A stretch of 64,000 bases of DNA. Origin: Omnitrophica bacterium GWA2_41_15. GTDB taxonomy: Bacteria; Omnitrophota; Gorgyraeia; Gygaellales; UBA12090. The notes below the pieces were generated by a model that had not been told where the DNA came from, did not search any database, and worked only from the letters and a program-made list of their open reading frames with translations. This document shows, piece after piece, positions 3,519 to 43,029 of the stretch (positions are counted from its first letter, which is position 1; each line of letters starts with the position of its first letter). The DNA lies in contig CAKKRH010000013.1 of NCBI GenBank assembly GCA_919902675.1, forward strand, positions 47,239 through 111,238, read 5' to 3'. Both the position numbers and the translations under genes were made by a program.

Positions 3519-3803
3519 CTATCCGCAAAGCTTGAGCTTATTCTCTCTGGTAAGGCCCTTAATGCGGGATTCCCGCTTTTGGGCTTGGGATCTAGTGGGG
3601 TGTTCTTCGGAATGGATGAGTTTTACCGGCCAGCGAAATCTCGTATATCTGCCGCCGTTGCCTTCATTATGGTCTTTTACTCGACGAGGAAGGTTGTTGG
3701 TGACTCCGGTATAGAGCGTTTTATCACGGCACTCGATTATATAGACGTGCCAGGATATGTGAGGCAGGTGCTCCATGAAACGTGTGTTATATGTGGAAGG
3801 CAC
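3519..3803 (-). CDS. Small GIY-YIG nuclease family protein, copy 1 of 3
   Basis: WHVYIIECRDKTLYTGVTNNLPRRVKDHNEG...QAQKRESRIKGL is the GIY-YIG (YhbQ/UPF0213-like) signature. The likely true start is MEHLPH at 3776. Nearly identical at DNA level to 5823..6080 and 9430..9717. Confidence 0.8.
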   Translation of the reverse strand: MPSTYNTRFMEHLPHISWHVYIIECRDKTLYTGVTNNLPRRVKDHNEGNGGRYTRFRWPVKLIHSEEHPTRSQAQKRESRIKGLTRENKLKLCG

Positions 3804-3859
3804 TTCGCCCCCTTCGGGGGCTCAGTGCCCAATTTTTCGCCGAGAGGCGAAAAATTGGG
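3800..3859 (-). promoter_or_regulatory. Conserved double-hairpin leader upstream of GIY-YIG copy 1
   Basis: First hairpin: GCCCCC-TTC-GGGGGC (3807..3821), nested in CACT/AGTG. Second hairpin: a perfect 14-bp stem, CCCAATTTTTCGCC (3828..3841) / GAGA loop / GGCGAAAAATTGGG (3846..3859). The same sequence recurs at 9714..9773. Confidence 0.5.
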
Positions 3860-4114
3860 GTAGCTGGCTTTCGGACTTTAGGAACTTAATGATCAGCCAA
3901 CCGACGCCGTTTAATCCGTTGTATTATCAAACCGCATCCTGCTAAACTGCGAATATGCGACTTTACAAATTGGCAATTCAATTCGCAATCTGTAAAAATA
4001 GTATCGTATAGGGTATTGTATAGGAATCAGAAGCCCGATTGCGTATAAAAAGAACGTAACCCTTTGAAAATCCAATGCTTAATTTTTATACGATTCCCGG
4101 CAATGCGTATAAAA

Positions 4115-5605
4115 CTACTGGTATTCGATCACCGCGGCCAAGGCTGTCACGACTTCTTCAATCGTCTGCGGTGAAGCCTTACCGATAAATTTCACGAATT
4201 TCTGATAATCAACGCCTCTGACCTGCAAAACATCGACTGCGGATACCTTACTGAGATTATTTTGCGCATCCGGTTCGATTTTAACGTGCCAAATATTCCC
4301 CGCGAACGCCTGTTTCCATTCCGTGATGGGGCCAACGATCTTTATCGGTAATTTGCCTATGCCGTCAGAGCTGATAACGAGAACGGGCCTGTTTTTCTTG
4401 ATTTCCGCGCCAACTGCCGGATCGAGCTTTACTTCCCAAATCTCACCACGTTGAGGAATATTGATTTTACTGCTCAAAGAAGTCTCCTGCCTGCCAAGCG
4501 GATCTGGTGTGGTCATTATCATAGTCTGGTGCGGCCTTCTCCGCTTGCTGGGCAAGGATCCTTCGTCTCTCTTCAAGGAAAGCGGGGTCTTGTCCTCGAT
4601 CTTCTCGCCCAATAGTGTTTCGGCTTCGGATTGGCCGAGCAAAGATTCAGCAAAAGCTTTATAGACGTTTTGCTTCAACCACTCCGTCCTTTCAACAGGC
4701 AAAGGATTGGGTTCTTGTCGTTTCCATCCCATCTTATTAATGCATCTGAACCATTGGACGCAATATGACTCCGAGATCATATCCAACTCTTTAAGCCGGT
4801 ATAAAATCGATTGCATGCTCATTCCGAATTTCTTCTTCAAAATAAGCAACTCTTGCAGATCAATGGCCGTTCTTTTGTCGCCAACTTCGCGCGCGATCCA
4901 TTCTTTTGGAGCCAGAAATGCCGCTCCAAAGCGAAATGCGGCCTTTTCTTCATCGACTGACTGCGTTATTTTCAAGACCAAATGGCCTAATTCATGAGCC
5001 AAGTTTAATCGCTGTCTTTCTCCGGAAGTTCCTTTTTTGACGACGATGGCTACGCCTTTGACGTGATGATCCTCATATGCGACTGCGGCCATTCCATCGA
5101 ATTTATCATTCGCATCAACTTCCAAAATATGAATAAGCTTGTTCTCTAAGATTCCGGTGATGCTGGATATCTGATCTTTACCCAAGTTCCATTCGACGCG
5201 AATAGAATCAGCGGCTTTCTCGACTTCATCCAATCTGTTTATATGAAATTTCTGTATAGGAACATTCAGCGTCGCGGTGGGACAAACAAGATTCTGAATT
5301 TTTAACCGCTCTTCCAGACTTTCCTTAACAAGGTTTTCGATGCGCGATTGTTCCTTCTTTCTCAAAGCAGATCTCTTCCGGTAAGCAATGAACTCTATAC
5401 GGTATTTGGGTTCGGAGAGCAATTGAATCGTCTTCAGATTGAATGCGCTGGCGATCTTGGCTAAAACAGGGGCTGAAGGCTGATCGAGGCCTAACTCATA
5501 TTTTGAAATAGCCTGCTTCGTGACCACTCCACCGATGTGGGCCACTAATTCATCCAGAGACCATCCTCTGGACAAACGCAATTGTTTGATTTTTTGAGCT
5601 AACAT
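4115..5605 (-). CDS. Single-chain fusion: XRE-type HTH + ImmA/IrrE (M78, COG2856) metallopeptidase + MazF/PemK-like toxin domain
   Basis: N-terminus LAQKIKQLRLSRGWSLDELVAHIGGVVTKQAISKYELG is an XRE HTH. AHELGHLVL is the HEXXH motif. C-terminus RGEIWEVKLDPAVGAEIKKNRPVLVISSD...VSAVDVLQVRGVD is MazF/PemK. There is no stop codon between the domains. The start is set at the ATG at 5605 (SD GAGGGA) because the first 11 codons of the tracked ORF cover the promoter. Confidence 0.75.
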   Translation of the reverse strand: MLAQKIKQLRLSRGWSLDELVAHIGGVVTKQAISKYELGLDQPSAPVLAKIASAFNLKTIQLLSEPKYRIEFIAYRKRSALRKKEQSRIENLVKESLEERLKIQNLVCPTATLNVPIQKFHINRLDEVEKAADSIRVEWNLGKDQISSITGILENKLIHILEVDANDKFDGMAAVAYEDHHVKGVAIVVKKGTSGERQRLNLAHELGHLVLKITQSVDEEKAAFRFGAAFLAPKEWIAREVGDKRTAIDLQELLILKKKFGMSMQSILYRLKELDMISESYCVQWFRCINKMGWKRQEPNPLPVERTEWLKQNVYKAFAESLLGQSEAETLLGEKIEDKTPLSLKRDEGSLPSKRRRPHQTMIMTTPDPLGRQETSLSSKINIPQRGEIWEVKLDPAVGAEIKKNRPVLVISSDGIGKLPIKIVGPITEWKQAFAGNIWHVKIEPDAQNNLSKVSAVDVLQVRGVDYQKFVKFIGKASPQTIEEVVTALAAVIEYQ

Positions 5606-5628
5606 AGTTAATTCCCTCATCAGTTGAC

Positions 5629-5657
5629 AATATACCATATCTTATTACATTTGTCAA
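5629..5657 (-). promoter_or_regulatory. Sigma70-type promoter with flanking inverted repeat, for the XRE-ImmA-MazF gene
   Basis: On the minus strand: TTGACA (5657..5652), a 17-nt spacer, then TATATT (5634..5629). GTTGACAA and TTGTCAAC form an inverted repeat around the -35/-10 elements, plausibly an operator for the HTH. Confidence 0.55.
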
Positions 5658-5822
5658 CCGCTATAATTTCTTGGCATTGGACCATTCTCTTGACCATTTT
5701 TAAAAGATATGCTTCTTAATTTACTCCGGATTGTCGAAATTACGTTAAGCGCATCCACACCTCTAAAATAGTCGCTGTCCATATTTATTCCGCTTGAGCT
5801 AAACGAGAGCTCGCATAGTCGC

Positions 5823-6080
5823 CTATCCGCAAAGCTTGAGCTTATTCTCTCTGGTAAGGCCCTTAATGTGGGATTCCCGCTTTTGGGCTTGGGATCTACT
5901 GGGGTGTTCTTCGGAATGGACGAGTTTTACCGGCCAGCGAAATCTCGTATATCTGCCGCCGTTGCCTTCATTATGGTCTTTTACTCGACGAGGAAGGTTG
6001 TTAGTGACTCCGGTATAGAGCGTTTTGTCACGGCACTCGATTATGTAGACGTGCCAGGGCGCAAGAGGCAGGTGCTTCAT
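5823..6080 (-). CDS. Small GIY-YIG nuclease family protein, copy 2 of 3
   Basis: 85 aa with the same WHVYIIECRDKTLYTGVTNNLPRRVKDHNEG core. It begins 22 bp after the fic stop and lacks the hairpin leader of copies 1 and 3. Confidence 0.8.
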   Translation of the reverse strand: MKHLPLAPWHVYIIECRDKTLYTGVTNNLPRRVKDHNEGNGGRYTRFRWPVKLVHSEEHPSRSQAQKRESHIKGLTRENKLKLCG

Positions 6081-6102: not shown

Positions 6103-7104
6103 TTAATTCAGGCGGTATCGAACGGCCCTTGCCGCGCCTTCTCTGGTGACGATGCCCGAACGGACAAGCGGACTAATGAGCTGATTGACGCGGGCGCGAT
6201 TGATCTTCATAGTTTTCCTGATTTCTGGCGCGCCTAAAACATCTTTTCGTTTTAACAAATCCAAAAGCTCTTCCTGTTTAGGCGTCAACGAAATCCCTTG
6301 CAACCGAAGTGTCCCGGCCTTGATCCTGTTTTGTGCATCCTCATGCGCCCACGCCAAACCTTGGGCAACATATTCCACCCAGCGCGTAAAGTCCCGATCC
6401 ATGTCACGTGTCTGCTGGATCATGTCATAATAACGAGGCCGATCCTGCGCAAAGAAATCATCAAGGCCAAGGGTGCAAAGAGGATCAAAACCCTTTTCCC
6501 AAAGAAGCCACTGCCCGGCCGCGCGAGCCACGCGGCCATTGCCATCCACAAAAGGATGGATCGTCAGAAACTCGTGCTGAAAGATGGCACTACGGATAAC
6601 CAGATGCAAGGATTCATCCTTCGCCCAAGCAAAAAGGGCTTTCATGCGGCCCGCAACCTGCGCGGGAGGCGGCGGAGTAAAAATAACTTTATTGCGGGCA
6701 TCCACGATATAGTTCTGGACACTGCGATACTGGCCCGTTCGATCTTTGGCCAAAAGCCCCTTGATCATGCGGCCATGCACAGCCAAAAGCCCAAGTTCAG
6801 TGACCGGCTTATGTTTGGTCTTTAATATCTGCCGCATGGCTTCAACGCAATTGGCGACCTCTGTCTTCTGCTTTTCTTCAACCAAAAGATCCTTGCCGTC
6901 AACCACGGCCCTGACCTGCGCCAAAGACAGGAGATTGCCTTCAATCCATGTGGATGAATGAACGCTCCGGGCAAAAGCATCCCTCTCCAAAGGGGCCTTA
7001 ACAGACACTTTCAGCCGCGAGCTTCTGACAAGCGCACCCGTGACAGCAATCTGCTCAAACAGTTTTAAAAGGTGTGGCGTTATCCGATATTGGGCTTTAA
7101 ACAT
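6103..7104 (-). CDS. Fic/DOC family protein with an N-terminal inhibitory helix motif and a C-terminal winged-helix
   Basis: HPFVDGNGRVARAAG is the Fic core HxFx(D/E)GNGRxxR. STWIEGN fits the (S/T)xxxE(G/N) autoinhibition motif. The C-terminus LTPKQEELLDLLK...RARVNQLISPLVRSGIV is HTH-like. Confidence 0.85.
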   Translation of the reverse strand: MFKAQYRITPHLLKLFEQIAVTGALVRSSRLKVSVKAPLERDAFARSVHSSTWIEGNLLSLAQVRAVVDGKDLLVEEKQKTEVANCVEAMRQILKTKHKPVTELGLLAVHGRMIKGLLAKDRTGQYRSVQNYIVDARNKVIFTPPPPAQVAGRMKALFAWAKDESLHLVIRSAIFQHEFLTIHPFVDGNGRVARAAGQWLLWEKGFDPLCTLGLDDFFAQDRPRYYDMIQQTRDMDRDFTRWVEYVAQGLAWAHEDAQNRIKAGTLRLQGISLTPKQEELLDLLKRKDVLGAPEIRKTMKINRARVNQLISPLVRSGIVTREGAARAVRYRLN

Positions 7105-7271
7105 AATTCAAGTTTACCATATCGTATAGGTATTGTATAGGGAATTGTATAGGGCGCCAGCAATAGAGCCGCTTCTACCAATCCATATTCGCTGAATTGT
7201 CCCATTCATGGCATAAATGTTCGAGAAACTCTTTCATATCTTCTACTGAATTCATTGCCTGACGGTAAATA

Positions 7272-7410
7272 CTCACAAGGAACTCACAAGACGCTTTATC
7301 TAACCTTATCGCGCTGAGTAAGTTACGAAACAATTACGCTTTCTATATTTTTTGTGGAATTGTTTTGCAACCCAATACTGAGCAACGAGTTACATAGAGC
7401 GTCTTTTAAT
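7272..7410. repeat. 139-bp imperfect palindromic repeat, copy A (attC-like or MITE-like)
   Basis: Direct repeat of 9183..9322 with scattered substitutions. The arms AAGACGCTTTATCTAAC ... GTTACATAGAGCGTCTT are inverted repeats. Inner arms pair as well (GAAACAATTAC / GGAATTGTTTT). Confidence 0.8.
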
Positions 7411-7491
7411 TTTTATAATCAAACTTTGCGCGCTCAAAACACTGCATCATCGCCTTATGGGCGCCGTGGATATCCCCGATGGCAAGAGTTC

Positions 7492-8406
7492 TCATTCCCA
7501 CCCTCTCGGAAACTTCCATGTTTTATCGAAATTTCCATTTTCGTTAAGCGCCATAATAGGCTCAATAAGAAAATTTTCTATTTCCTTAGCCGTAGTAGAC
7601 AAAGTTTCCGGCGCGTGTTGAATATCACCTTTTTTCAAAAACGCGCTCCAAAGCGTCTGCCTGTCGGATTTTTCATCATAAATTTCATTAGCAAACAAAG
7701 GTTTTTTATTAGGGACATCTGTTTTTCTGTTATTGAACGTTTTCTTTACCGCGCTAGCAATATTTGCCCCCTTAAATTCAAACTGCCTCATCATAAGCCA
7801 GATATCGTAAAAATCTTTCATCCTGCTATTTAAAAGACCGAGTTTAATCATAGCCTCAAACTTTTCGCTGATAACACTCTCTTGGGGATATCCATTTAAA
7901 TGCGGTTTTGGAAAATCCAGAATCACCGGATAATCAATGACCTTGGTCCTTGGATATACAATATCACCAAAGCCCACGTCAATCTGCATCGGGATCCTCG
8001 CGCGGTCTAAAAAACCGGTGAATTTTACACGCACCCCTTCATAGTCCGCGTCTTCTTTGATCTTCGTTCCTTTGACTGTTTGAGAATCAAAATTAAGCCC
8101 GTCAAGATCCACGCTGATGTCGCATACCTCTTTCATCACTTTTTCGATAGTCGTGACCTCATTATCAAAACGGGCTAAGAAATCAATATCAAGAGTTGTG
8201 CGCCTGTCAGGTATCTGCCATACAGCGAATAAAAGCGCGCCTTTTAATACAAACTTATCAGCGTATTTTGATTTGCTGAACCGGTAGAGAAATCTCTCCA
8301 TGCCGTAATACTGCATTACTTCCGCGAATGGGCGATTTGTTTCTTTCGCTTTATTTTGTAGCTGTGCCTTAACGGAAGCCTCTATGTTTTTTACTTCTCT
8401 CTTCAT
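7492..8406 (-). CDS. abiEii: AbiEii/AbiGii-family nucleotidyltransferase toxin (type IV TA / abortive infection)
   Basis: MERFLYRFSKSKYADKFVLKGALLF...RRTTLDIDFLAR is the typical AbiEii N-terminal nucleotidyltransferase fold signature. It overlaps the upstream AbiEi gene by 4 nt. Confidence 0.8.
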   Translation of the reverse strand: MKREVKNIEASVKAQLQNKAKETNRPFAEVMQYYGMERFLYRFSKSKYADKFVLKGALLFAVWQIPDRRTTLDIDFLARFDNEVTTIEKVMKEVCDISVDLDGLNFDSQTVKGTKIKEDADYEGVRVKFTGFLDRARIPMQIDVGFGDIVYPRTKVIDYPVILDFPKPHLNGYPQESVISEKFEAMIKLGLLNSRMKDFYDIWLMMRQFEFKGANIASAVKKTFNNRKTDVPNKKPLFANEIYDEKSDRQTLWSAFLKKGDIQHAPETLSTTAKEIENFLIEPIMALNENGNFDKTWKFPRGWE

Positions 8407-9005
8407 AGCATGGTTTCTATTATTGGTTTTATAATTCTGTCAACACGGCAAATCTTCGCGTATTCCATAATATCCTTTGGCTTGACATGCTTTTCAGTAA
8501 TGGCAACCTTCAGCGCCTCTCTGGCAACATTCAGCCCGATTCTATTACGAAATTTAAAACAATCGGCAACACTCTTTGCGAGGCTATAAATTTTTACCGT
8601 ATGGCCTTCGATCTCATGTTTTTCGACTCCGGCCTTCCAAGTGTCGGGAGCAAACCTATAAAATCTAACAGGTGGATATTTAATTCTGTTTTCATGAGTG
8701 CCTCGGGGTATCGCGACATCAACGTATTTGGGTATTTCATTTGTTGCTTCATGAAAAGCAAGCGCCGAAAGAAGGCATACTGTCCCCTTAGGAATTTTAA
8801 TTGAGATAGCCACAAGGTCGGGATTGGAAAACGACATGCCTTCTGAGAGACTATAAAGCCCTCTGTCCAGTTTCTGAATATTATTGTTATCAAGGCTGAC
8901 TTTGATGAGCGCTTTATTGAAACCCGCTTCATCAAGTTCAGAAAAACTGGCCATTCCGCCTTTTTGTTTGAGAAATTGAATAAGTTCCGCTTCTTTTGAG
9001 CCCAT
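8403..9005 (-). CDS. abiEi: AbiEi-family antitoxin / transcriptional regulator
   Basis: The N-terminal winged-helix LIQFLKQKGGMASFSELDEAGFNKALIKVSL...LDRGLYSL and translational coupling to AbiEii support the call. Confidence 0.75.
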   Translation of the reverse strand: MGSKEAELIQFLKQKGGMASFSELDEAGFNKALIKVSLDNNNIQKLDRGLYSLSEGMSFSNPDLVAISIKIPKGTVCLLSALAFHEATNEIPKYVDVAIPRGTHENRIKYPPVRFYRFAPDTWKAGVEKHEIEGHTVKIYSLAKSVADCFKFRNRIGLNVAREALKVAITEKHVKPKDIMEYAKICRVDRIIKPIIETML

Positions 9006-9182
9006 TCGTATCGCTCCTTATCTATTTACACTTGTGCATAAGTGTATAGCATTTGGGATAGCATGTCAAGCGGTATTTTTCTAACGGCTGGAAATGATAC
9101 CATATATCCTTACCCCCTCTTTTATAAGGGGAAGTTAAGGAAATTGCTTTGTATAAGTAAAGAGGTTTTTGAAAGATTAAAG

Positions 9183-9322
9183 AATCACAAAAATCACAAG
9201 ACGCTTTATCTAACCTTATCGCGCTGAGTGAGTTACGAAACAATTACGCTTTCTATATTTCTTTCGCGGAATTGTTTTGTAACCTAATGCTGGGCAATGA
9301 GTTACATAGAGCGTCTTTTAAT
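9183..9322. repeat. 139-bp imperfect palindromic repeat, copy B
   Basis: Same element as 7272..7410. Together the two copies bracket the abiEi-abiEii pair. Confidence 0.8.
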
Positions 9323-9429
9323 ATATTAATGCCATCATAACTAACTGCTTATCAATTAGTTAGGAAACTTTTTTTCCGCGATAAATATTTCACAACTATT
9401 TATCAAAAAGACATGAAGGGTATCTCTGG

Positions 9430-9717
9430 TTATCTCTCGCATAATTCGAGCTTCTTGGCTCTGGTAAGGCCCTTGATGTAGGATTCCCGCTTTTGGGCTT
9501 GGGATCTACTGGGGTGTTTTTCGGAATGGACGAGTTTTACAGGCCAACGGAATCTCGTATATCTGCCGCCGTTGCCTTCATTATGGTCTTTTACTCGACG
9601 AGGAAGGTTGTTGGTGACTCCGGTATAGAGCGTTTTATCACGGCACTCGATTATATAGACGTGCCAGGATATGTGAGGCAGGTGCTCCATGAAACGTGTG
9701 TTATATGTGGAAGGCAC
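9430..9717 (-). CDS. Small GIY-YIG nuclease family protein, copy 3 of 3
   Basis: 95 aa with the same core as copies 1 and 2. The likely start is at 9690. The hairpin leader is repeated at 9714..9773 (14-bp stem at 9742..9755 / 9760..9773). Confidence 0.8.
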   Translation of the reverse strand: MPSTYNTRFMEHLPHISWHVYIIECRDKTLYTGVTNNLPRRVKDHNEGNGGRYTRFRWPVKLVHSEKHPSRSQAQKRESYIKGLTRAKKLELCER

Positions 9718-10396
9718 TTCGCCCCCTTCGGGGGCTCAGTGCCCAATTTTTCGCCGAGAGGCGAAAAATTGGGGTCGCTGGTGGCTTGGTAAAGGTAAAA
9801 GGTTTATTATTGTTAGATGGATTTCCCTGCCAAATACTACCGCGACTTATACTATTACTGCTACTCCTCCGCCTAAAAATTGCTCTTTAGGAAATAAAAT
9901 CAGATTCGCGAGGCAATCTCTCGGAAAGACTCAAAAAACGCTTTCTGAAATGATTAAGCATCCCCGGAGCTTAATCAGCCGTTATGAACAAGACAAAATC
10001 AGAAAACCCAATACCAAAGTCCTGCTTGACATCGCAAAGTCTCTGAAGGTCAGCCCTGATAAGCTAATCTCTATCCAGCAATTCCAACCAATTGGAAATA
10101 AGGCAGAAATTGATAAGCTTTATGCCTTTCTCAAAACCCCGCATAACTTCGGCAAAAAACTAAGAGACTTACGCCTTCGGGCAAATATTGAACAAAAGGC
10201 CTTGGCCCTGGAAGTCGGGATTAACCGCGAAAGTATCCGGCGCTATGAAAGGAATATCACCCGGCCAAGCAAAGCGATTTTAGCCAAAATCATAGAGGCT
10301 TTAAAAGACTCTTCCCGCAAGCTGCAAGAGAAATATTACCATAATAAAGGCGCTGACTCAAGTAAATTTGTAGCAAAAATTGAAAGGAGGAATTGA
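9689..10396 (+). CDS. Tandem XRE-type HTH protein (two HTH_XRE domains); start uncertain
   Basis: The two HTH units are IRFARQSLGKTQKTLSEMIKHPRSLISRYEQDK and LRDLRLRANIEQKALALEVGINRESIRRYERN. The only in-frame ATG upstream of the first HTH lies inside the GIY-YIG repeat, antisense to the GIY-YIG start. The 5' 200 nt may therefore be repeat-derived or untranslated. Confidence 0.55.
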   Translation: MKRVLYVEGTSPPSGAQCPIFRREAKNWGRWWLGKGKRFIIVRWISLPNTTATYTITATPPPKNCSLGNKIRFARQSLGKTQKTLSEMIKHPRSLISRYEQDKIRKPNTKVLLDIAKSLKVSPDKLISIQQFQPIGNKAEIDKLYAFLKTPHNFGKKLRDLRLRANIEQKALALEVGINRESIRRYERNITRPSKAILAKIIEALKDSSRKLQEKYYHNKGADSSKFVAKIERRN

Positions 10397-14324: not shown

Positions 14325-16808
14325 TTACATGTTAACAGAAATCGGTACAGTAATACCGATTTTATTTGCTACAGGAGTATAAATATCCACTTTTTCTTCT
14401 GGAGTTGTTATTGATACAACGAGTGCATACCGACACTTACGGTTCCATTTCTCAAGATAAGCTCTTTCACGCCACCAGCCGATAACAGGATAAATAGCAA
14501 TAACACCAGATTCCGCTAATTCTGCAGCGGTACCATCCCATATATCAGAATGTATTGAGCCTTTGTCTCTTCCATTTGACCCAATTGTCCAATGATCCGA
14601 TGCGCTTTGAGTTCCCGGATGGCCTTCATCTTCAGATCTTACAGCTACATTTATCCTCTTAATAAAATCATCGTTTGTTTCATTGGGAGATTTTACATCA
14701 AACCGCAGCGCATGAGAGGCGTAACGATAACGATCTTTCCACCCTATCTCACCAGGCCCTGGCTCTATAAAATAAGATAGCGTGATGCGCATTTGAACAT
14801 TCGTTTGAGATGGTAAATGTAGAAGAACTTCCTTAGGCCAAGGTAAATCATAAAGATGCATTTCTTTAGTTTTATAACCACTTCCTCCATCTTTCTCATC
14901 AAAAGGTTGTAATTCTTCTTGTGCAATAAGCGTCAAACTATTCGATCCACTGTAAAGAGCGCGCGTCAAATTAGGCACACCATACCCACAAATACGTAGC
15001 AGCCGAGAATAATCTGTCTTTGTAGGTTTAAGCGGTAAAAATTGTACTTTTAAAGTATCAGTCCATTCAGCAGAATGCACCATCAGGGCTCGAATTGTTT
15101 CCGGCCAGATGTCCGGATAGGCATTATGTATTTGCGCTGCAAACCAAGCTGCTTGCGCAGTTGCCGCACTAGTCATATTGAAGTCATAAAAATGGCGAAC
15201 CGCCGGGTCACGAAAAGTGGACAAAAGAGACACATCATCAGCACTACTACAATAACCATGCCCATCGTGAACCGCATTACCGCCTTCCATAACAATTTCT
15301 GGTTTAATAGGCCAACGACTCTCCCATTCTAAAGATGTAGTAGTAAATGGCGAAAGTCCTCCTGATGGCGCAACCGGAGAAAATCCTGCAAAAGATTTAT
15401 CTTTTATTTGGTCTAATTTAGTAAATGCTCCAACTGTAAGCGCATTCCATGATTGGGCAGGGTCATGAACAGAATCTGTTAATTGAGCATCGGGATAATT
15501 CAATATGGTACCAAAATCGGTAATATTCCCCGCGCATATAATAAAAAGCCGCTTATTGTCGTCATTTACTCCAGATGAAAGTTGATCGACCTTACCTGAC
15601 CAAGAACTAGGACGGCCTCGATCTCGAGTATCAATTGCAGATATAGCCATACATAGAACGCGTTTCCTTTCTGGAGACTGAATTTCTGCTCTACTAACAG
15701 CCTGAGCCGTAATATAACCCCAAAGTTCTGGCTTAGTATACCCTGGTGGTCGAGGAAGAATTTTTACAGACTCGAGACAGTGACGCAAATGGATTAATTC
15801 TGTATTCAATAGACATTCCCCCAAATCACCATAAGCAGCCACCCCTGCCATAAGAGTACCGTGCCCATTATGGTCATCAATTCCCCAATTTGGATCAACG
15901 GAGTGACAATCTCCACTTTTTAAAACCAAAGAAAGCAGTGGATGCCCATAATTTATACCTGTATCCAGCACACAGATAGCAACCTTTGGATCGGATTCCA
16001 CTTTACATCGTTGCAATAAATCCCTAACCCACTGCGCTTGCTCTTGGTTCTCCATCTCTACCCAAAAGACAGCTGTTTCTTTTGCCCGTCTATATTCCGC
16101 GATGTCATCAGATAAAGCAGTCAAACGCTCTAGCTGGCTTTTATTAGTTAAAATCAGTTTTACTGTGCGCTCTGGAAAGCGTATTGTACCCTTAGCTTTC
16201 TCAATTTGCTCACGGTCGAGAATTTCTTCAAACCTTTGGATTACTGCATCAGTTTCACTACTCAACCAAACCTCACACCATGTCTTTTCCTCAGAAGGAA
16301 TCAATTCTTTTTTGTCCTGCCAAAAAGACTCAACCAAAATAGCCTCTCTAATATCGGCTATGCTATTAATCAAGGTTGCATTCTTAGGCTTTCCCGATTT
16401 TAAATCATTCATTGCGTACTCTTGGATTTTAGATAGAAAATACCCCTTCTTCTCATTCGCCACATAAACAGTGGCAAGAGTAACTGCGGCATCTCCATCT
16501 CCTTCTGTACGCACATTTAATAACCGCACCTTTTTAGAACGCATATCGTCCAAGCTTTTGGTAACCAAATCTGCTCCAGGATCACTTTTAAATTCAATAT
16601 AGACACCTTCCCTAATCGCATGTATTACGGCTTGTTTATTTTTGGCTTGCTGCCAAGCAGCATTAAGTCTGTCAAGAAGAAATTGACTATGAGGCTGTCT
16701 ATCTCGAATAGGGATGTGTGGTTTAGCACCCATAGAAGAAGTACCCGTGAAGTTCTTTACGGCAGGATGGTCTCGTAGAAAAATATGAGAGAATCGTTCA
16801 TTAGCCAT
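14325..16808 (-). CDS. S8 (subtilisin-like) serine peptidase with large N- and C-terminal extensions; IetS-like
   Basis: The catalytic triad context is CVLDTGINYGHP (Asp), HNGHGTLMAGVAAYG (His) and FNMTSAATAQAAW (Ser). The gene is paired 6 nt downstream of an AAA+ ATPase gene. Confidence 0.8.
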   Translation of the reverse strand: MANERFSHIFLRDHPAVKNFTGTSSMGAKPHIPIRDRQPHSQFLLDRLNAAWQQAKNKQAVIHAIREGVYIEFKSDPGADLVTKSLDDMRSKKVRLLNVRTEGDGDAAVTLATVYVANEKKGYFLSKIQEYAMNDLKSGKPKNATLINSIADIREAILVESFWQDKKELIPSEEKTWCEVWLSSETDAVIQRFEEILDREQIEKAKGTIRFPERTVKLILTNKSQLERLTALSDDIAEYRRAKETAVFWVEMENQEQAQWVRDLLQRCKVESDPKVAICVLDTGINYGHPLLSLVLKSGDCHSVDPNWGIDDHNGHGTLMAGVAAYGDLGECLLNTELIHLRHCLESVKILPRPPGYTKPELWGYITAQAVSRAEIQSPERKRVLCMAISAIDTRDRGRPSSWSGKVDQLSSGVNDDNKRLFIICAGNITDFGTILNYPDAQLTDSVHDPAQSWNALTVGAFTKLDQIKDKSFAGFSPVAPSGGLSPFTTTSLEWESRWPIKPEIVMEGGNAVHDGHGYCSSADDVSLLSTFRDPAVRHFYDFNMTSAATAQAAWFAAQIHNAYPDIWPETIRALMVHSAEWTDTLKVQFLPLKPTKTDYSRLLRICGYGVPNLTRALYSGSNSLTLIAQEELQPFDEKDGGSGYKTKEMHLYDLPWPKEVLLHLPSQTNVQMRITLSYFIEPGPGEIGWKDRYRYASHALRFDVKSPNETNDDFIKRINVAVRSEDEGHPGTQSASDHWTIGSNGRDKGSIHSDIWDGTAAELAESGVIAIYPVIGWWRERAYLEKWNRKCRYALVVSITTPEEKVDIYTPVANKIGITVPISVNM

Positions 16809-16814
16809 GATGAC

Positions 16815-17786
16815 TTATCGTTCTTTTGTATGATATGCTAAACGACGTTCTTTTAGTAAATCTTCAAATAATTTGAACGCGACAGATTCTTTATTATTCA
16901 ATATAGCGAGCTTTATTGCATCACGGCACACATGATCAATTTCAGCGTGGCTAAGCCCTTCAGCCATTTTTGCAGCCCTTTCTGAAGGAAAATCTTTACT
17001 GCAAAAAGTGCCCAGTAGATTTTTGATTAATCTTAATCGATCATCTTGTTCTGGCAACCCATAATGAAGCACATCGTCGAATCTCCGGAATAAGGCTCGG
17101 TCAAGCAGTCGTAGGTTATTAGTAGCCGCAATAATCAAATTATTCGAAGCATCTTTATCAATAAACTGCAAAAAAGCATTCAACACTCGACGCATTTCAC
17201 CAACATCATTTTCTAAATTCCTTTCGCCACCAATAGCATCAAACTCATCAAATAAATAAACCCCTGGCATCTCACGTATTTTATCAAAAATTTGCCTAAG
17301 CTTTGCGCCAGTTTCCCCCATAAATTTTGTAACTAATCGATCCATTTGAATAATATGTAATAGCTGATTTAATTCAAATGCCAAAACTTTAGCTGTCATA
17401 GTTTTACCCGTTCCTGGGGCACCAGCTAAAAGTATTTTCCTGCGATGAGACAAACCATGGCTTTTAAGCTTATTTTGCTGTCGAAACTCAGTAACAATCC
17501 GCTCAATTCTCTGCTTTAATTGATTATTAACTACTAAAGACGATAATGGAAGTCCCGGCTGTTCAGTAAAAATAAGCCCATTGAGATCCTGAGGAAAGAC
17601 AAGGATATTCTTTTGAGAGGTTTCTTTCTTTGCTTTATCAACAAGCTCGCGAATTTCATGAGCCAATTCACTGTGCCCCTGACGAGCTTCATGGGCTGCA
17701 ATCTGCAAAACAGTTGCAAAAAACTGCTCAGAATTGTCATTGTAGTGCGAACGAATTAAAGCTTTCACCTGTTCTGACGTAGCCAT
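16815..17786 (-). CDS. AAA+ ATPase (classical clade); IetA-like
   Basis: Walker A is GAPGTGKT and Walker B is VYLFDEFDAIG. Sensor-1 is IIAATNN and the Arg-finger region is ALFRRFD. The start is set at the ATG at 17786, which is preceded by AAGGAG. Confidence 0.85.
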   Translation of the reverse strand: MATSEQVKALIRSHYNDNSEQFFATVLQIAAHEARQGHSELAHEIRELVDKAKKETSQKNILVFPQDLNGLIFTEQPGLPLSSLVVNNQLKQRIERIVTEFRQQNKLKSHGLSHRRKILLAGAPGTGKTMTAKVLAFELNQLLHIIQMDRLVTKFMGETGAKLRQIFDKIREMPGVYLFDEFDAIGGERNLENDVGEMRRVLNAFLQFIDKDASNNLIIAATNNLRLLDRALFRRFDDVLHYGLPEQDDRLRLIKNLLGTFCSKDFPSERAAKMAEGLSHAEIDHVCRDAIKLAILNNKESVAFKLFEDLLKERRLAYHTKER

Positions 17787-18170
17787 TTTCTGCTCCTTAA
17801 ATGGTGTCGGTATTCGAGAACAACAACATTTAAAATACTTCAATTATATATTATAATAAACTAACATAAATAAAGCTATAACTTTCATACCTACATCATT
17901 AGGACTTCAAGTATTGTATCCCAAAACCCATCCAAGACCAGTTAAAACCCCCGGACTGGTTTATCTCTTTAGGATTAAGTATTGTGCCCCAGGATTCCGC
18001 ACCGGGATTCCTATTCCTCTATCTATCCCCCCTATAAACTCCCGCACTTGTTCTTGTTTTAGTCTTCAAGACTCCGTTGGCATCTCTATGGGAAGCGCCT
18101 GTGGAGGTGCAGCCTATCAAGCTGGCAAAAATAAAAGAAATAATAAGAATATAAAGATACTTTATCCCCT

Positions 18171-21577: not shown

Positions 21578-24500
21578 TCATTTATTTTTCTTCTCATCAC
21601 TTGCATGTTCTATAATAACCCGATAGATGTCCCGCGCTAATAAGGGGAATACCGCTTTCTGAAATTCTGAATCGTCCATATATCGGGTAACGATATCATC
21701 GTTCTGAGACATTCGTTGCATCATAAGCGATTCAATGATTTTCCTGATTCCAAGCTCAAACTTATCCAAAGTGTTGGCCTTTGCAGTTTGAATGACCCGC
21801 TCATCTTTACAGGCTTTTTCTTTAATTTGTTCAAAAAACAATCTATCTTCTTCGGTAAAATTCGTTCCAAACTTTTCATTAAGCACTTGAATAATCTCAG
21901 AGAGCAGTTTATCTTCATCTTTAACTTTGCTCGTGCCAACAGCCGTCGGACTCTTAACCCCGCCCGAGTCTCCGTCAGACAAAATAATAGCGCCTGACAT
22001 AACCTTCTCAAGCCGATAATACTGCAAGGTAACCTCTTTTTCTGGATGAGGCCGCCCTATATCGTCTGTATCATCAAGGTGCGGTATCAAAGCCCTGCCA
22101 AAACTATAAAGCATCTCCAGTTCTGCATCCGCGTAAGGGACAATTTGGCTGATAAAAGAATAAAACCTGACATAAGCGGTTATTTTTTCATAAAACTCCA
22201 CTTTCTTAACCTCATCCAAATAGCGATAGCGGTCTACCGCCGGCTGAATATGCTTCTCCATCCGGGCGTGATCAGAAGGGTTTTGCTTATGAATAGGTAG
22301 ATAAAAAATCTGCGAGAATGCCTCAACCTCTGACCAATGATAAACCTGCATCGCGTCTAATTCATGCTTGATCTTCTCTATATGGCTTGGATCAGAAACC
22401 TCTTGAATTTCTGTAGCGTCATAATAAGGTTTAAATGCCATATAAATGTCTTCCGCGTTATTTACAAAATCCAAAATAAACGGCGCTTCCTTTCCCGGAT
22501 AGGTTCTATTCAAGCGAGAAAGCGTCTGTACCGCCTGAACGCCATCAAGGCGTTTATCCACATACATCGCGCAGAGAAGCGGCTGATCAAACCCTGTCTG
22601 GTATTTATTCGCCACCAAAAGCACCTGATAATCCCCAGTATCAAACTTATCCGGCAATTGTGATTCAGATATATTCTTGCCTGTAACAACATCTATATTC
22701 ATACCAGGTTCGGTATATTCAAGGCTTGTGTCCGGGTCCTTAACGGTTCCGCTGAACGCCACAAGCGGACGCACATCAGTATATTTATTTTCAGCGATAT
22801 ACTTCTGGAAAGAGAGCATATACCGCACCGCCTGAAGCCTGGAACTTGATACAACCATAGCTTTGGCCCGACCGCCAAGTTTAGGCCGGACATGTTCACG
22901 GAAATGTTCAATAATAACCTCTGTCTTTTGTTCAATATTGTAAGGATGGATAGTCATATATTTGGCTAATGCCTTCGTAGCTTTCTTTTTCGGCATATTG
23001 GGGTCATCTTCAGCCTTTTTCGCTAAACGGTAACATGTTTTATAAGTCGTGTATCTCTGAAGGACATCCAAAATAAACTCTTCCTCTATGGCTTGGCGCA
23101 TCGAATAAGTGTGGAATGCCTCGGGTTTCCCCGAACTCCCCACACGACCAAAAAGCTCAAGCGTCTTACCCTTGGGAGTAGCTGTAAAAGCAAAGAAACT
23201 TAAATTCTTCTGCTTGCCGCGTGATTCCATTATCTGATTGAGCCTATCTTCCCAATCAGCTTCCGCTTCTTCCTTTTCCTGATTTGTGCCAGCTCCAAGA
23301 ATAGCCTTGAGCTCCCGGGCAGCTTCTCCAGTCTGGCTGGAATGCGCCTCATCAACAATAACCGCGTATTTCCGGGCGGCTATCCTGTCTTCCCATTCCC
23401 GCGCTCTCTGCGCAGAAGCCGCATCCGGGGTATCAAGATTTTCAGCTCCAGCTATGTGCAAAAGCCCTTTTAATACGAATGGAAATTTCTGAAGTGTGGT
23501 AATAACTATCTTAGTCCCATCTACCAATGCCTCGGCCAATTGCCTTGAATCTTGTTCAATGGCCTTAACTACACCTTGGGCATGCTCAATCTGATAAATA
23601 GCGTCTTGAAGCTGTCTATCAAGGACTTTGCGATCTGTAATTACAATCACACAATCAAAAATCTTTTCATCATGATCCGTATGCAAGCTGGAAAGCCGAT
23701 GCGAAAGCCATGAGATACTATTCGTCTTGCCGCTTCCTGCAGAATGTTGAATAAGATAATTGTTCCCGACTCCTTCTGATCCTGCCGTGCTCACCAGTTT
23801 TCGCACAGAATCCAACTGGTGATATCGCGGAAAAATCATTGTTTCCTTGATTACTTTTTTTCGGCCGCCTTGACCATCGTCAATTGTTTCTTCGGTAGTT
23901 TCTAAAAAGATAAAACTCCCGATAATATCAATAAAGCTGTCGCGCGCTAAAATATCTTCCCAGAAATATCCGGTGCGATGGCCGAAATGGTGTTGAGGAT
24001 TGCTGGCGCCGCATTTCATTTCACCAGGGTGGCTTCCGCGGTTAAAAGGCAAAAAGAATGTATTCTCCCTATCAAGGCACGTTGCCATATGCACTTCATT
24101 CGGGTCTACAGCAAAATGCACCAGCGCACCTTTCTTGAATTGGAAAAGTGGAGCGCGGGGATCGCGGGTCTTTTTGTACTGATGAACCGCATCCCGCCAG
24201 GTCTGGCCGGTCATCGGATTCTTAAGCTCGCAGGTTGCTACCGGAATGCCATTTAACACAAGCACAAGGTCAATAGTGCTATTATCCTGCGGATGACAGG
24301 GCACTTGACGGACGACATACAATTTGTTCTTTTCATAAAGGGTAAGTGTTTCCTGATTGAGTCCATGAGCGGGCTTGAAATAAGCAATATGAAACGCCTT
24401 TCCATAGAATTTAAAGCCATGGCGAATAATGTGAAGGGTTCCCTTTGCCTCGCGTTCTTTGACAAGGGCTTCCTGAAGTTTTGGTTTAAGATCAACGCCA

Positions 24501-24679
24501 TGCAGTTTTTCCATCTGTTCCCACAGCACCCCTTGGGTTTCCTTGAGAAAAGAAAAGATATAATCAGGGAACAACCCGCTCTTAACGTCCCACAATACGC
24601 TTAAACCGGTCACCCAGCCACAGCTGGCCATGGTCTCTTGAATATAAATCTCAAAAGCTTTTTCTGTTGATGCTTTCAT
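21578..24679 (-). CDS. hsdR: Type I restriction enzyme R subunit
   Basis: Helicase motif I is HSAGSGKTNSISW and motif II is VIVDEAHSSQ. Length and architecture are typical. The start is set at MKASTEKAF (SD GAGGTG). Confidence 0.9.
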   Translation of the reverse strand: MKASTEKAFEIYIQETMASCGWVTGLSVLWDVKSGLFPDYIFSFLKETQGVLWEQMEKLHGVDLKPKLQEALVKEREAKGTLHIIRHGFKFYGKAFHIAYFKPAHGLNQETLTLYEKNKLYVVRQVPCHPQDNSTIDLVLVLNGIPVATCELKNPMTGQTWRDAVHQYKKTRDPRAPLFQFKKGALVHFAVDPNEVHMATCLDRENTFFLPFNRGSHPGEMKCGASNPQHHFGHRTGYFWEDILARDSFIDIIGSFIFLETTEETIDDGQGGRKKVIKETMIFPRYHQLDSVRKLVSTAGSEGVGNNYLIQHSAGSGKTNSISWLSHRLSSLHTDHDEKIFDCVIVITDRKVLDRQLQDAIYQIEHAQGVVKAIEQDSRQLAEALVDGTKIVITTLQKFPFVLKGLLHIAGAENLDTPDAASAQRAREWEDRIAARKYAVIVDEAHSSQTGEAARELKAILGAGTNQEKEEAEADWEDRLNQIMESRGKQKNLSFFAFTATPKGKTLELFGRVGSSGKPEAFHTYSMRQAIEEEFILDVLQRYTTYKTCYRLAKKAEDDPNMPKKKATKALAKYMTIHPYNIEQKTEVIIEHFREHVRPKLGGRAKAMVVSSSRLQAVRYMLSFQKYIAENKYTDVRPLVAFSGTVKDPDTSLEYTEPGMNIDVVTGKNISESQLPDKFDTGDYQVLLVANKYQTGFDQPLLCAMYVDKRLDGVQAVQTLSRLNRTYPGKEAPFILDFVNNAEDIYMAFKPYYDATEIQEVSDPSHIEKIKHELDAMQVYHWSEVEAFSQIFYLPIHKQNPSDHARMEKHIQPAVDRYRYLDEVKKVEFYEKITAYVRFYSFISQIVPYADAELEMLYSFGRALIPHLDDTDDIGRPHPEKEVTLQYYRLEKVMSGAIILSDGDSGGVKSPTAVGTSKVKDEDKLLSEIIQVLNEKFGTNFTEEDRLFFEQIKEKACKDERVIQTAKANTLDKFELGIRKIIESLMMQRMSQNDDIVTRYMDDSEFQKAVFPLLARDIYRVIIEHASDEKKNK

Positions 24680-24721
24680 AAACACCTCACACAAAATAGA
24701 AGTCAATTAGACGCAACTACA

Positions 24722-25382: not shown

Positions 25383-26726
25383 TTACCTCACATAAATTTT
25401 CCCGGTCACCGCCGCGCTGATGAGGGCGGTGCGGTATTCTTTGAGTCTTTGAATGGCCTTGTGCACTTTTTCTGCCAAAGCGTCAATCTTGCCGGTTTCA
25501 CGATCGAGATATTCAACAATTGTCTTCTGTTCAGCAATAGCGGGAATCCCAAATATCAATATCGGTATGTCATCCATGCTGATGTTTTTTTGCGTGTTCG
25601 ATGTGCAATAAATATCAATCTGTGCCTGTAAAAACATGCTTTTGAATGAATATTCGAGATAAGCACTATCGACTTCTCTATCATCAGGTCTTATCAAGGC
25701 CAATGGCGACCAGATGCTAAATTCAAAATCAACTTTTACTCGTGCTATCTTGCCAGTTGATGCCGCCTTTCCAAGTAGAATATCTCCAACTCGAGGAAAT
25801 GCCTTTTGCTTAAATTCCTTATGGTCTTCCAATGATATATATCTACATTTCTCAAAAACTAATTCACCATCCTGAATACCATCAACTGACAAAAAAGGGA
25901 TCCCATCATCAATAAATTCTGGCGTCGTATGTGGCCCATCAGTAATTGGCTCAGCTATTAAATACTTTAGCCTTTTTACATCCCAATGCTCTGGCACATC
26001 GCCAAGCCATTCCACGCCGGATGGTTTGAAACGGACATTGGGATTAAGTCCCTTGGTGACCGCGCGAGAGATTAGCGCTGTGCGCTTTTCTTTCAACCGC
26101 TCAATCAGAAGTTCTTTTTTTGATATCAGCTCATCAATCTTTCCAGTCTCACGGTCCAAGTAGTCAGCAATGGATTGTTGTTCGGAGAGAGGTGGAAGTA
26201 AAACAGTCACATTTTTTAATGAATCTTGGTAGATTACCTCAATGGTAGTACCATTACTTTTTATTCTGAGCTGTTCGAGAATAAAGGTGCTTTCTTCAAT
26301 GAGAATTTCTAAAAAACGATCATACACCTTTGCTTTATCCGTTTGCAACCTCATTAAGCAGGGATGAAGAACTCCTTGCTCGGCATTTTCTGGTAAAATT
26401 GCACAGCGTCCGATTGTTCCTCTTGTGGTTATAAGAAAATCGCCTGGAAATGTCTGAAATTCTTTGAGTTCCTTGAATTTTTCCAATGAAATGTAGTTTT
26501 CACCATATTCAAAATCGTTGGAAATTACACTTTTTTGATTATAAACCTTAACATCCTCGTCGTACATTTCGGAAGATAAAAGCTGGCTGCCAAAGGGTCC
26601 TGTTTTGATTGCATTTTTCTTTGCTTTGAGCAAATCCTTTAACCTTTTCACCTCCCAAAATTCCGGCACATCGCCAAGCCATTCCACGCCGGATGATTTA
26701 TATCTTGGGTATGCTTTTAATTTCAT
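25383..26726 (-). CDS. hsdS: Type I R-M specificity subunit with two target-recognition domains
   Basis: The conserved frames are duplicated: SGVEWLGDVPEFWEVKRLK / SGVEWLGDVPEHWDVKRLK, and YLDRETGKIDELI...RTALISRAVTKG / YLDRETGKIDALA...RTALISAAVTGK. Confidence 0.9.
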   Translation of the reverse strand: MKLKAYPRYKSSGVEWLGDVPEFWEVKRLKDLLKAKKNAIKTGPFGSQLLSSEMYDEDVKVYNQKSVISNDFEYGENYISLEKFKELKEFQTFPGDFLITTRGTIGRCAILPENAEQGVLHPCLMRLQTDKAKVYDRFLEILIEESTFILEQLRIKSNGTTIEVIYQDSLKNVTVLLPPLSEQQSIADYLDRETGKIDELISKKELLIERLKEKRTALISRAVTKGLNPNVRFKPSGVEWLGDVPEHWDVKRLKYLIAEPITDGPHTTPEFIDDGIPFLSVDGIQDGELVFEKCRYISLEDHKEFKQKAFPRVGDILLGKAASTGKIARVKVDFEFSIWSPLALIRPDDREVDSAYLEYSFKSMFLQAQIDIYCTSNTQKNISMDDIPILIFGIPAIAEQKTIVEYLDRETGKIDALAEKVHKAIQRLKEYRTALISAAVTGKIYVR

Positions 26727-29446: not shown

Positions 29447-30190
29447 TTACCATCCCCTACACAATTCCTTATACCCGCACATACCGCAAAAGTAGTTCTC
29501 GTTGGGATAGAATATGCCAGTTTTGATTGCCTTTGAAACATAGGCCAAGATTTTGAGGAAGCGGTCAATGTCTTCCTGGCTACGCTGGGTGGAGAGCTGT
29601 TGGATTTTCGGGGTTTTGTTTCTGACCATTACATCAAAGCGCAGAGCGCTTTCCTGAAGACCAAAGGTCTGCCTATAGGCGAGGGCATAGCAGGTAAGCT
29701 GTAGGTCTTTGGCGGCATTGTCTTCCGGCATACTGCGTTTGGTGGTTTTGTGGTCAATAATGATGTCCTGACTATCCACAAGGTCAAGCCTGCCTTTTAG
29801 GGTGTAGTCAACATTCTGGAAAGATAGCTCAAACTCTTTTTCCACAATCTTGGGCTGGATAGCCGGAGATACCTGATTATGGTAGGCACTAATCAAGCCT
29901 ATACCTTCGTCTTTGACTTGACCCGGCTTCTCGTCTTCTTCAAATACTGTTTCCTTAACCCCGGAGTCCCAGAAATCCGAAAACAAGTCTGTTAACTGCT
30001 TAACCGGCAGATCATCTTTGGTCTTTATCTTGCGGACATAATTCACCTCTAATGCGGAATGGATTGACTTGCCTAAGGTAAGCGCGCTGGCCGGAGGGAT
30101 TTTCAGGCCGTCAAGGTAACGGAATTTATACTGCAAAGGGCAACGAAGATACATCTTAAGCTGGGTTACGGATAAATGATTATTATTCAT
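29447..30190 (-). CDS. PD-(D/E)XK exonuclease of the Cas4/RecB-like type (phage-type)
   Basis: There is an N-terminal Cys in YLRCPLQYKFRY, the core is RLDLVD...IIDHKTTK, and a C-terminal Cys cluster reads FCGMCGYKELC. This is the 4-Cys Fe-S pattern of the Cas4 family. Confidence 0.7.
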   Translation of the reverse strand: MNNNHLSVTQLKMYLRCPLQYKFRYLDGLKIPPASALTLGKSIHSALEVNYVRKIKTKDDLPVKQLTDLFSDFWDSGVKETVFEEDEKPGQVKDEGIGLISAYHNQVSPAIQPKIVEKEFELSFQNVDYTLKGRLDLVDSQDIIIDHKTTKRSMPEDNAAKDLQLTCYALAYRQTFGLQESALRFDVMVRNKTPKIQQLSTQRSQEDIDRFLKILAYVSKAIKTGIFYPNENYFCGMCGYKELCRGW

Positions 30191-42749: not shown

Positions 42750-43029
42750 GCACTCTGAAATTGCAGGAATAATGGGAAAAACCGTTAAGATGATGAATTC
42801 CCTTCTCCCTCATCTTAACAATACCAATGACGATGCCGCGACCCAGGAAGCAATACAGGAATATTTATCAATACGCTCGGAATTAAGATGGCTGTGCGAT
42901 AAGTTTGAGCACAGCCTTTTAAATGACCCGGATATCCAGTGGATCTGGAAAGATAAGCCGAATATGAGCTGGCTTAATATCTACGACCGGATTTCTTTTA
43001 TTAACCGCAAACTATTTACTATCCTCTAA
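42742..43029 (+). CDS. Hypothetical 95-aa protein between the excisionase-like and recombinase genes
   Basis: ORF with overlapping start and stop junctions on both sides, which suggests translational coupling. Confidence 0.45.
   Translation: MLEHSEIAGIMGKTVKMMNSLLPHLNNTNDDAATQEAIQEYLSIRSELRWLCDKFEHSLLNDPDIQWIWKDKPNMSWLNIYDRISFINRKLFTIL

Follow-up and report, generated by a model that had tools for sequence, protein, structure and literature searches.

Two kinds of described repeat systems come closest to the element considered here. In the REPIN-RAYT systems of P. fluorescens and E. coli (for definitions see PMC3116915 and PMC5581495), two inverted repetitive extragenic palindromic (REP) units with a short spacer fold into one hairpin, and the single-copy Y1/HUH gene for the REP-associated tyrosine transposase (RAYT) is itself flanked by inverted units. 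In TIRtrons (TIRYTs), genes of tyrosine transposases lie between long terminal inverted repeats (TIRs), which are also dispersed as singles, dimers and clusters (PMC3733652). We analysed a window of 64,000 nucleotides (nt) from Omnitrophica bacterium GWA2_41_15 (contig CAKKRH010000013.1, positions 47,239 to 111,238), in which two copies of an imperfect palindrome bracket the toxin-antitoxin genes abiEi and abiEii. An earlier note, made from the letters of this stretch, had read the palindromes as integron attC sites and had mentioned a foldback element as the alternative. In our opinion the palindromes are very probably a REPIN-like (REPtron/TIRtron-type) non-autonomous repeat element linked to an IS200-like Y1/HUH transposase.

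The two direct copies (doublets A and B, Table 1) described in the earlier note are real. They share 90.5% identity over 147 alignment columns with one 2-nt indel (BLAST of identical sister contigs against the window), and repeat finding agrees with this result. The 20-mer and the 22-mer from the ends of the repeat each occur twice in the 64 kb, with none expected (100 shuffles, up to 3 mismatches allowed). Each copy also forms the imperfect hairpin that had been proposed. Folded as single-stranded DNA, the plus strand reaches -18.8 kcal/mol (z = -3.3) and the bottom (minus) strand, the folding of which had been suggested as a check, -17.9 kcal/mol (z = -3.0). The folds display bulges and a conserved G.G / C.C mismatch, the source of which are two subtypes of arms. 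The bracketing of the abiE pair holds as well, with the stop of abiEii 81 nt from copy A and the start of abiEi 172 nt from copy B. The two genes (7492..9005) are what is bracketed and lie outside the repeat element proper.

Each palindrome is a heads-out inverted doublet of a 48-nt unit, AAGACGCTTTAT-N-TAAC-N17-GTTAC-AAAACAATT, in which the heads (AAGACGC...) face outward and the two units are joined by 22-24 nt. The unit is conserved, at its fixed length, in 25 aligned copies from 13 sources, and the sole symmetry inside it is TAAC-N17-GTTA. The two arms of a doublet are of distinct subtypes, C-type and G-type, with offset 4-nt indels. On the opposite strand the unit head (window 7288-7294 and 7399-7405) reads GCGTCTT and so contains CGTC, the tag of the 'CGTC' REP superfamily, for which no dedicated transposase has been reported (PMC3733652). 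This may be a coincidence, as the remainder of the unit departs from the described geometry of CGTC-REPs (PMC3733652).

The unit is present in at least 11 genomes of Candidatus Omnitrophota. This number comes from a pattern scan of one genome per species, in which 11 of the 120 matches listed belong to Candidatus Omnitrophota and most matches are due to chance, the first genome pattern being highly degenerate. A strict 46-nt pattern, in which 21 bases are fixed and one position is two-fold, across 23 free bases, matched 59 metagenome stretches. The search for further copies that the earlier note had recommended was productive: using nhmmer, we recovered 45 doublets and 58 unpaired matches in 72 sources, 57 of them non-redundant. 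The unit occurs in singles, doublets and tandem runs, and the distance between the outer ends of a doublet is mostly 116-124 nt, sometimes 153. In related loci the density of the element is approximately 0.5-1 per 10 kb. Strong clustering of the doublets was considered and rejected, as the excess is merely mild, with 1.0 element per 10 kb within 3 kb of another element and 0.6-0.8 further out.

The link to a transposase comes from the loci where inverted units lie further apart. In at least five of the metagenome or genome loci compared with the window (these loci bear L-numbers; here L056, L092, L158, L169 and L177), a single open reading frame (ORF) of 224-248 amino acids (aa) lies between two inverted units that are 600-900 nt apart. 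The encoded protein, typically of about 225 aa, has matches to Pfam Y1_Tnp (E 1e-14 and 4e-16) and contains the HUH motif NHYHLLLE. Its best NCBIfam model is NF047646, the REP-associated tyrosine transposase (79.1 bits, cut-off 80), and the NCBIfam IS200 model scores 20.9 bits at a threshold of 55. The only match in PDB is 4ER8, the E. coli TnpA-REP bound to REP DNA. The family is large, with more than 1000 relatives at E<=1e-20, many of them named as Omnitrophota transposases. At the loci with one C-type flank (L092, L158 and L169), the C-type unit TATCTAAC is located 5' of the gene and points inward, and a G-type or A-type unit (TATGTAAC or TATATAAC), inverted, overlaps the 3' end of the gene. 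At L056 and L177 neither flanking unit is C-type. On the plus strand both doublets of the window have the C-type unit first, which is the orientation of the units around the transposase gene.

The window itself contains no partner transposase (tblastn), and the gene lies elsewhere in the same organism. A member (P0122) of the 90%-identity protein cluster P0053 is encoded on an ENA contig of 2,155,397 bp, which is also the length of the contig with the window. P0053 itself comes from a contig of the window's own sample with a coverage of 80, vs 79 for the window's contig. The P0053 gene has radical-SAM genes on both sides, and the inverted units next to it are diverged, with TAGACGCTTTACGTAAC... 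upstream and TAGACGCTTTATATAAT... downstream on the opposite strand. The transposase was seen at one locus per sample, although further paralogues may exist, and across the five loci and the window's genome the Y1/HUH transposase was the only gene found between inverted units. A further candidate for a transposase between inverted 'units', 2.7 kb apart in L129/L150, was rejected, as the genes there are hydrolases and the 'units' are arms of two separate doublets. Partial or tandem duplications of the unit were noticed in L185 (978-1005, the last 20 nt of the doublet again), L092 (3924-4123), L056 (2022-2107) and L149 (5300-5419). The tandem arrays of L092 and L056 are situated just upstream of the transposase gene; L149 is also an array.

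Since the gene has these two unit types as its inverted ends, we regard the doublet as the transposase element with its gene deleted. By analogy with the IS200/IS605 transposases and the E. coli RAYT (PMC3479197, PMC6006769, PMC3116915), the transposase would act in trans on the single-stranded, folded doublet and could cut next to the conserved heads. The element would then be moved or copied without target duplication, probably at replication forks. Such strand-specific action could also account for a bias in the orientation of the doublets.

The distribution of the copies is that of a dispersed element. A variant of doublet B, 97-98.5% identical, stands in the unrelated flanks of L153, L162 and L185, which are other Hainich contigs, and in pairwise alignments the identity sets in 9 nt or less ahead of the left head and goes no further than GCGTCTT on the right side. 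No target-site duplication was found at any doublet examined. All 31 non-redundant doublets are intergenic, and in all 24 cases in which both neighbours are known, these genes are co-directional. Of the 16 doublets in which one arm is C-type, 15 have the G-type arm facing the upstream gene, a figure higher than that of independent events, as many copies are related by descent. Single units occur between housekeeping genes and are kept at orthologous sites in genomes 85-93% identical, where their conservation is no better than that of the flanks. In L098 (2976-3074) a single unit is accompanied by a terminator-like hairpin, and the orthologous site of L171 (9322-11425) is occupied by some 2.1 kb of different DNA in which no unit was detected.

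The element is also present or absent independently of the genes that it brackets in the window. In L200-L205, units are entirely lacking from the abiE homologues, which have 83% nucleotide identity. What these share with the window extends across abiEii and 82 nt of the gene that follows, which encodes a metallophosphoesterase, and stops at 7410, the last base common to both doublet copies. Position 7410 is thus a rearrangement junction at the edge of the element. In L198, half a unit lies upstream of abiE, and immediately downstream there is none. Hence the repeats do not move along with abiE as attC sites would with their cassette. Doublets A and B are each closer to copies elsewhere than to one another, and with 10% divergence between the two we consider them separate old insertions in a toxin-antitoxin/defence island. 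They are not needed for the function of AbiE, nor is AbiE their cargo.

Compared with the REPIN-RAYT systems, the Omnitrophota element shares the folding of two inverted units and a short spacer into one hairpin, the extragenic position, the occurrence in singles, doublets and clusters, the lack of target-site duplications and the persistence of copies at orthologous sites. It also shares the apparently single-copy Y1/HUH transposase gene between inverted units and a protein with its best matches in NCBIfam REP_Tyr_transpos and PDB 4ER8. It differs in the unit, which is 48 nt long and does not by itself make a stable GC-rich stem-loop carrying a GTAG tag, and in having arms of distinct C-type and G-type subtypes with their offset indels. 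At ~225 aa the protein exceeds the E. coli RAYT chain of PDB 4ER8 (165 aa), the host belongs to Candidatus Omnitrophota, and the copy number seems to be modest, judging from the ~0.3-1 per 10 kb in the loci seen. The TIRtrons/TIRYTs of Di Nocera et al. 2013 (PMC3733652) fit even better. There, too, a tyrosine-transposase gene lies between long inverted repeats of a kind other than REP stem-loops, of which the downstream one extends over the 3' end of the gene. The repeats also make up families of moderate abundance, with singles, dimers and clusters. The described TIRs, however, have other sequences (e.g. the GGGGWSAS motif) and other hosts, among them Stenotrophomonas and Acidobacteria.

The likeness to IS200/IS605 elements and their gene-less derivatives (PATEs) is more partial. 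A Y1/HUH transposase, the absence of target-site duplications and a short conserved motif just outside the left end are shared, the last being T-Y-W-C before the C-type head in most doublets. However, the ends of IS200/IS605 are subterminal hairpins in direct orientation on one strand and not long inverted repeats. Those elements are, moreover, multi-copy and typical of insertion sequences, whereas in the window's genome one locus was seen and the NCBIfam IS200 score is far under threshold.

Several results weigh against the assignment to a REPIN-like or TIRtron-type element. RNAalifold predicts no hairpin inside a single unit, which makes it unlike classical REPs; counts of named structures show the same pairing within single units as in shuffled controls, and the mean z-score of their interior fold is -0.12. 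Only 2 doublets are found in the 64-kb window, while over-representation is a defining trait of REP/REPIN populations. The score of the transposase lies 0.9 bit under the curated NF047646 cut-off, and the units flanking P0053 score 14-16 bits vs 43-48 bits for the window doublets. In the stem of the aligned doublets there is 1 compensatory pair out of 33, the sequences being too alike for covariation. Finally, no direct sign of recent movement was seen, doublets A and B differing by 10%. We describe the element as REPIN-like or TIRtron-type and not as a classical REP, because the unit is not itself a stem-loop.

The repeat could instead be a host cis element, such as a protein-binding site, a signal between transcription units that acts as a boundary or resembles a terminator, or a 3' hairpin that stabilises mRNA, with the transposase gene as a mere neighbour or domesticated partner. 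Two conserved blocks around a fixed, free 17-nt spacer do resemble a protein-binding site, and the strict placement between co-directional genes, the orientation bias and the single units kept at orthologous sites agree with such a role; E. coli REPs have secondary roles of this kind (PMC3733652, PMC3479197). Nevertheless, the conservation at orthologous sites does not exceed that of the flanks, units are present or absent at homologous positions, the same copy stands in unrelated flanks, and tandem and partial copies occur. Nor is there a terminator-like T run or an Rfam match. We consider this reading unlikely; it is compatible with a mobile origin of the repeat. Specific signals were inspected separately. 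By eye, a sigma70 promoter in the unit would have a spacing of 19-24 nt, which is too long, an extracytoplasmic function (ECF) sigma promoter would have TGTAAC...CGTC 28 nt apart, and a sigma54 promoter would lack the conserved GG/GC. An intrinsic terminator was rejected with no T run and no terminator-like site in 7100-9500, and a known RNA family with no Rfam match at the gathering threshold or at E<=1.

Composite mobilisation would use two doublets in direct orientation as outer ends, so that the Y1 transposase moves the genes between them, here abiE, in an integron-like shuffling. If true, a Y1/HUH transposase would shuttle abiE, Fic+GIY-YIG, MsrBA and superoxide dismutase (SOD) modules in and out of the tRNA-His-linked defence island of Omnitrophota, an integron-like cassette system run by a single-strand transposase and not by an integrase. 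Pairs of doublets indeed bracket varied cargo, namely abiE in the window and in L004, abhydrolase+SOD and Fic+GIY-YIG in L004, MsrBA+Fic in L153 and an amidohydrolase operon in L129. In L162 the left flank differs, and homology to the segment from doublet A through abiE to doublet B sets in at doublet A's outer edge; many close abiEii homologues sit on contigs of 1.7-3.4 kb, as if bounded by repeats. Against this stand the abiE homologues of L200-L205 and L198, which have no unit or half a unit, and the only mildly raised density of elements near another element. The module junctions between the window and L004 fall at the boundaries of the GIY-YIG and Fic genes, not at doublets, and homologous recombination at the 120-nt repeats accounts for the mosaics no less well. 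On balance, we regard such mobilisation as distinctly unlikely.

A classical miniature inverted-repeat transposable element (MITE), i.e. one derived by deletion from an insertion sequence of the DDE type and moved in cut-and-paste fashion via its TIRs, would likewise be discrete, dispersed and non-coding. The 48-bp units act like TIRs without a hairpin of their own, and an IS256/Mutator transposase gene is located in the window (33522-34481). That copy has no such ends within the window, however, and the unit hidden Markov model has no match near 33-35 kb; no doublet shows a target-site duplication, and the sole gene between inverted units, in six genomes, is the Y1/HUH transposase. The foldback families ERIC, Correia/NEMIS, RUP and RPE resemble our repeat as intergenic, non-coding and often co-transcribed imperfect palindromes of 100-150 nt, but those of them with known partners use DDE transposases and make target-site duplications (e.g. 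TA for Correia), none of which was seen here. A MITE in this strict sense is very improbable. The 'MITE-like foldback' of the earlier note was right in kind, the element being discrete, dispersed and non-autonomous, and mistaken as to the partner, which is an IS200-like tyrosine transposase and not a DDE enzyme. The sign that the note had given for a MITE, many copies with target-site duplications, would have missed the element. As a side observation, the IS256/Mutator-family ORF (33248-34481, plus strand) matches only positions 95-378 of the 379 in the profile and is overlapped by a short ORF on its upstream side, and is probably frameshifted or 5'-truncated.

The least probable explanation is the one first proposed, in which the repeats are integron attC sites of a cluster lacking an integron integrase (CALIN), an integrase IntI supplied in trans folds the bottom strand and recombines at the R' GTT, and abiE is the cassette. 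The resemblance is considerable. Imperfect hairpins of ~120 nt between gene modules are inside the attC size range, and a folded single strand is plausibly the active substrate in both cases. Same-orientation copies lie between different gene sets, toxin-antitoxin genes included, in L004, L153 and L198. Toxin-antitoxin cargo is typical of chromosomal integrons. The attC-like heptamers are also present, as ATGTAAC/GTTAGAT on the minus strand and ATCTAAC/GTTACAT on the plus strand, with GTTAGAT fitting GTTRRRY and ATCTAAC fitting RYYYAAC. They do not, however, form the palindrome's ends. Outside the heptamers, 9 conserved base pairs (AAGACGCTY / RAGCGTCTT) continue in 13 of 13 doublets, which places the heptamers inside the stem and off its base, whereas in the controls aadA1, aadA2 and cmlA1 (3 of 7 class 1 integron sites, inspected by eye) nothing pairs outside the cores. 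In the family the consensus reads TAT-N-TAAC, any base being allowed at N, and many copies break RYYYAAC. Whole 48-nt arms are conserved across genomes, vs the structure and two cores in attC, and single half-sites occur between housekeeping genes at orthologous positions. The units form the ends of a Y1/HUH transposase gene, and abiE homologues elsewhere lack the element. The absence of IntI from the window, already stated in the earlier note, was borne out, with no Phage_integrase match among 39 ORFs (Pfam) and nothing for IntI1 by tblastn at E<=10; no IntI1 homologue was found by tblastn in the 637 kb of window and Omnitrophota loci either. Membership among attC sites thus fails on core position, conservation pattern, integrase partner and co-travel with the cassette.

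For annotation, the repeat is an attC look-alike in its size, its imperfect palindrome, its GTTRRRY-like heptamers and its place between toxin-antitoxin cassettes. Recognising its identity as a transposase-linked repeat helps to avoid false CALIN or integron calls in Omnitrophota and in uncultured lineages like them. With this repeat, systems of the REPIN/RAYT or TIRtron type reach a candidate phylum, and in the literature searched we found no paper linking Omnitrophota to RAYTs, REPINs or IS200. The repeat is an unusual variant, 48 nt long, of fixed length and non-palindromic alone, yet conserved across many genomes. Current ideas are not overturned by it, as the element is ordinary in kind and its host is new. 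For assembly, it marks the junctions of variable defence and toxin-antitoxin modules. Many abiEii homologues 88-97% identical to that of the window are found on contigs of 1.7-3.4 kb, which suggests that assemblies often break at the repeats on both sides of abiE, and the repeat may thereby explain abiE homologues on contigs of 2-3 kb.

Table 1. Coordinates of the repeat copies and of the abiE features in the 64-kb window.
Feature	Position	Strand	Remarks
Doublet A (repA)	7266..7410	+	full extent of similarity to doublet B; hairpin core 7288-7405 (118 nt)
C-type 48-nt unit, doublet A	7288..7335	+	AAGACGCTTTATCTAAC-N17-GTTACGAAACAATT; nhmmer 42.9 bits, E 2.9e-11; alignment A2
Linker (hairpin loop), doublet A	7336..7357	.	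22 nt; sequence and consensus fold
G-type 48-nt unit, doublet A	7358..7405	-	AAGACGCTCTATGTAAC-N17-GTTGCAAAACAATT on the - strand; nhmmer 44.7 bits, E 8.3e-12
82-nt stretch 3' of abiEii	7410..7491	-	homologous to the 5' end of the metallophosphoesterase gene after abiEii in L200-L205
abiEii	7492-8406	-	Pfam AbiEii E 2e-39; PADLOC E 5.5e-100
abiEi	8403-9005	-	PADLOC AbiEi E 4.7e-65
Sigma70-like promoter match TTGACA-17-TACACT	9041..9069	-	between doublet B and abiEi; consensus match only
Doublet B (repB)	9178..9322	+	hairpin core 9198-9317 (120 nt)
C-type 48-nt unit, doublet B	9198..9245	+	nhmmer 43.5 bits
Linker (hairpin loop), doublet B	9246..9269	.	24 nt; sequence and consensus fold
G-type 48-nt unit, doublet B	9270..9317	-	nhmmer 48.2 bits

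The abiE cassette had been called promoter-less, which does not agree with the sigma70-like site on the minus strand (9069-9041), a 10/12 consensus match 36 nt upstream of abiEi. The neighbours of abiE are all on the minus strand and have the look of a toxin-antitoxin/defence island, with a small GIY-YIG gene present three times, a Fic gene and a helix-turn-helix (HTH)-M78 peptidase fused to a MazF-type toxin. The Fic protein (6103-7104) matches PADLOC SoFic, and the exact protein was found in no context other than the same locus. The 507-aa ORF 4115-5638 (minus strand) joins HTH and M78 peptidase parts (PADLOC RmrA, E 3e-40) to PemK/MazF (Pfam E 1.4e-22) and appears to be a fused Rosmer-like antitoxin-toxin.

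The GIY-YIG nuclease module (~334 bp, 85-95 aa) occurs at 3534-3867, 5818-6080 and 9448-9781 with 92-96% identity, and the copy at 9430-9717 abuts the start of a divergent HTH ORF (9689-10396). Its homologues adjoin doublets in L004, L137, L141, L153, L164 and L198, and in L153 and L198 the doublet follows after only 8 nt. The module may be a mobile, homing-type gene, and it marks module junctions. Doublets and repeated GIY-YIG genes both stand at junctions where related genomes carry different modules, and ordinary recombination between 120-nt repeats would produce this mosaic pattern.

The exact AbiEii protein is encoded on contigs of Hainich groundwater metagenomes, among them one of 2,155,397 bp. 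In L004, a related contig from another sample, the abiE region is 97% identical and the housekeeping flank only ~70-84%. The island of L004 starts directly after tRNA-His, and the repeat is present there in four same-orientation copies (three full, one half) between abhydrolase+SOD, Fic+GIY-YIG, abiE and a second Fic. The doublet-bearing toxin-antitoxin/defence island of L137 begins right after tRNA-His as well. In the window, no repeat of the tRNA-His end (att) bounding an island was found. A gene for a large serine recombinase (43029-44564, plus strand, 511 aa, with Resolvase, Recombinase and Zn ribbon domains) overlaps the 3' end of tRNA-His (44553-44629, minus strand). Further defence-like genes are an AAA ATPase and subtilase pair (14325-17843), a type I restriction-modification specificity subunit (25383-26726) amid the large ORFs 21578-24706 and 26723-28822, a PD-(D/E)XK/Cas4-like nuclease (29447-30190) and a STAND-type ATPase (36029-36982). 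Much of the first 44 kb of the window has the look of accessory DNA.

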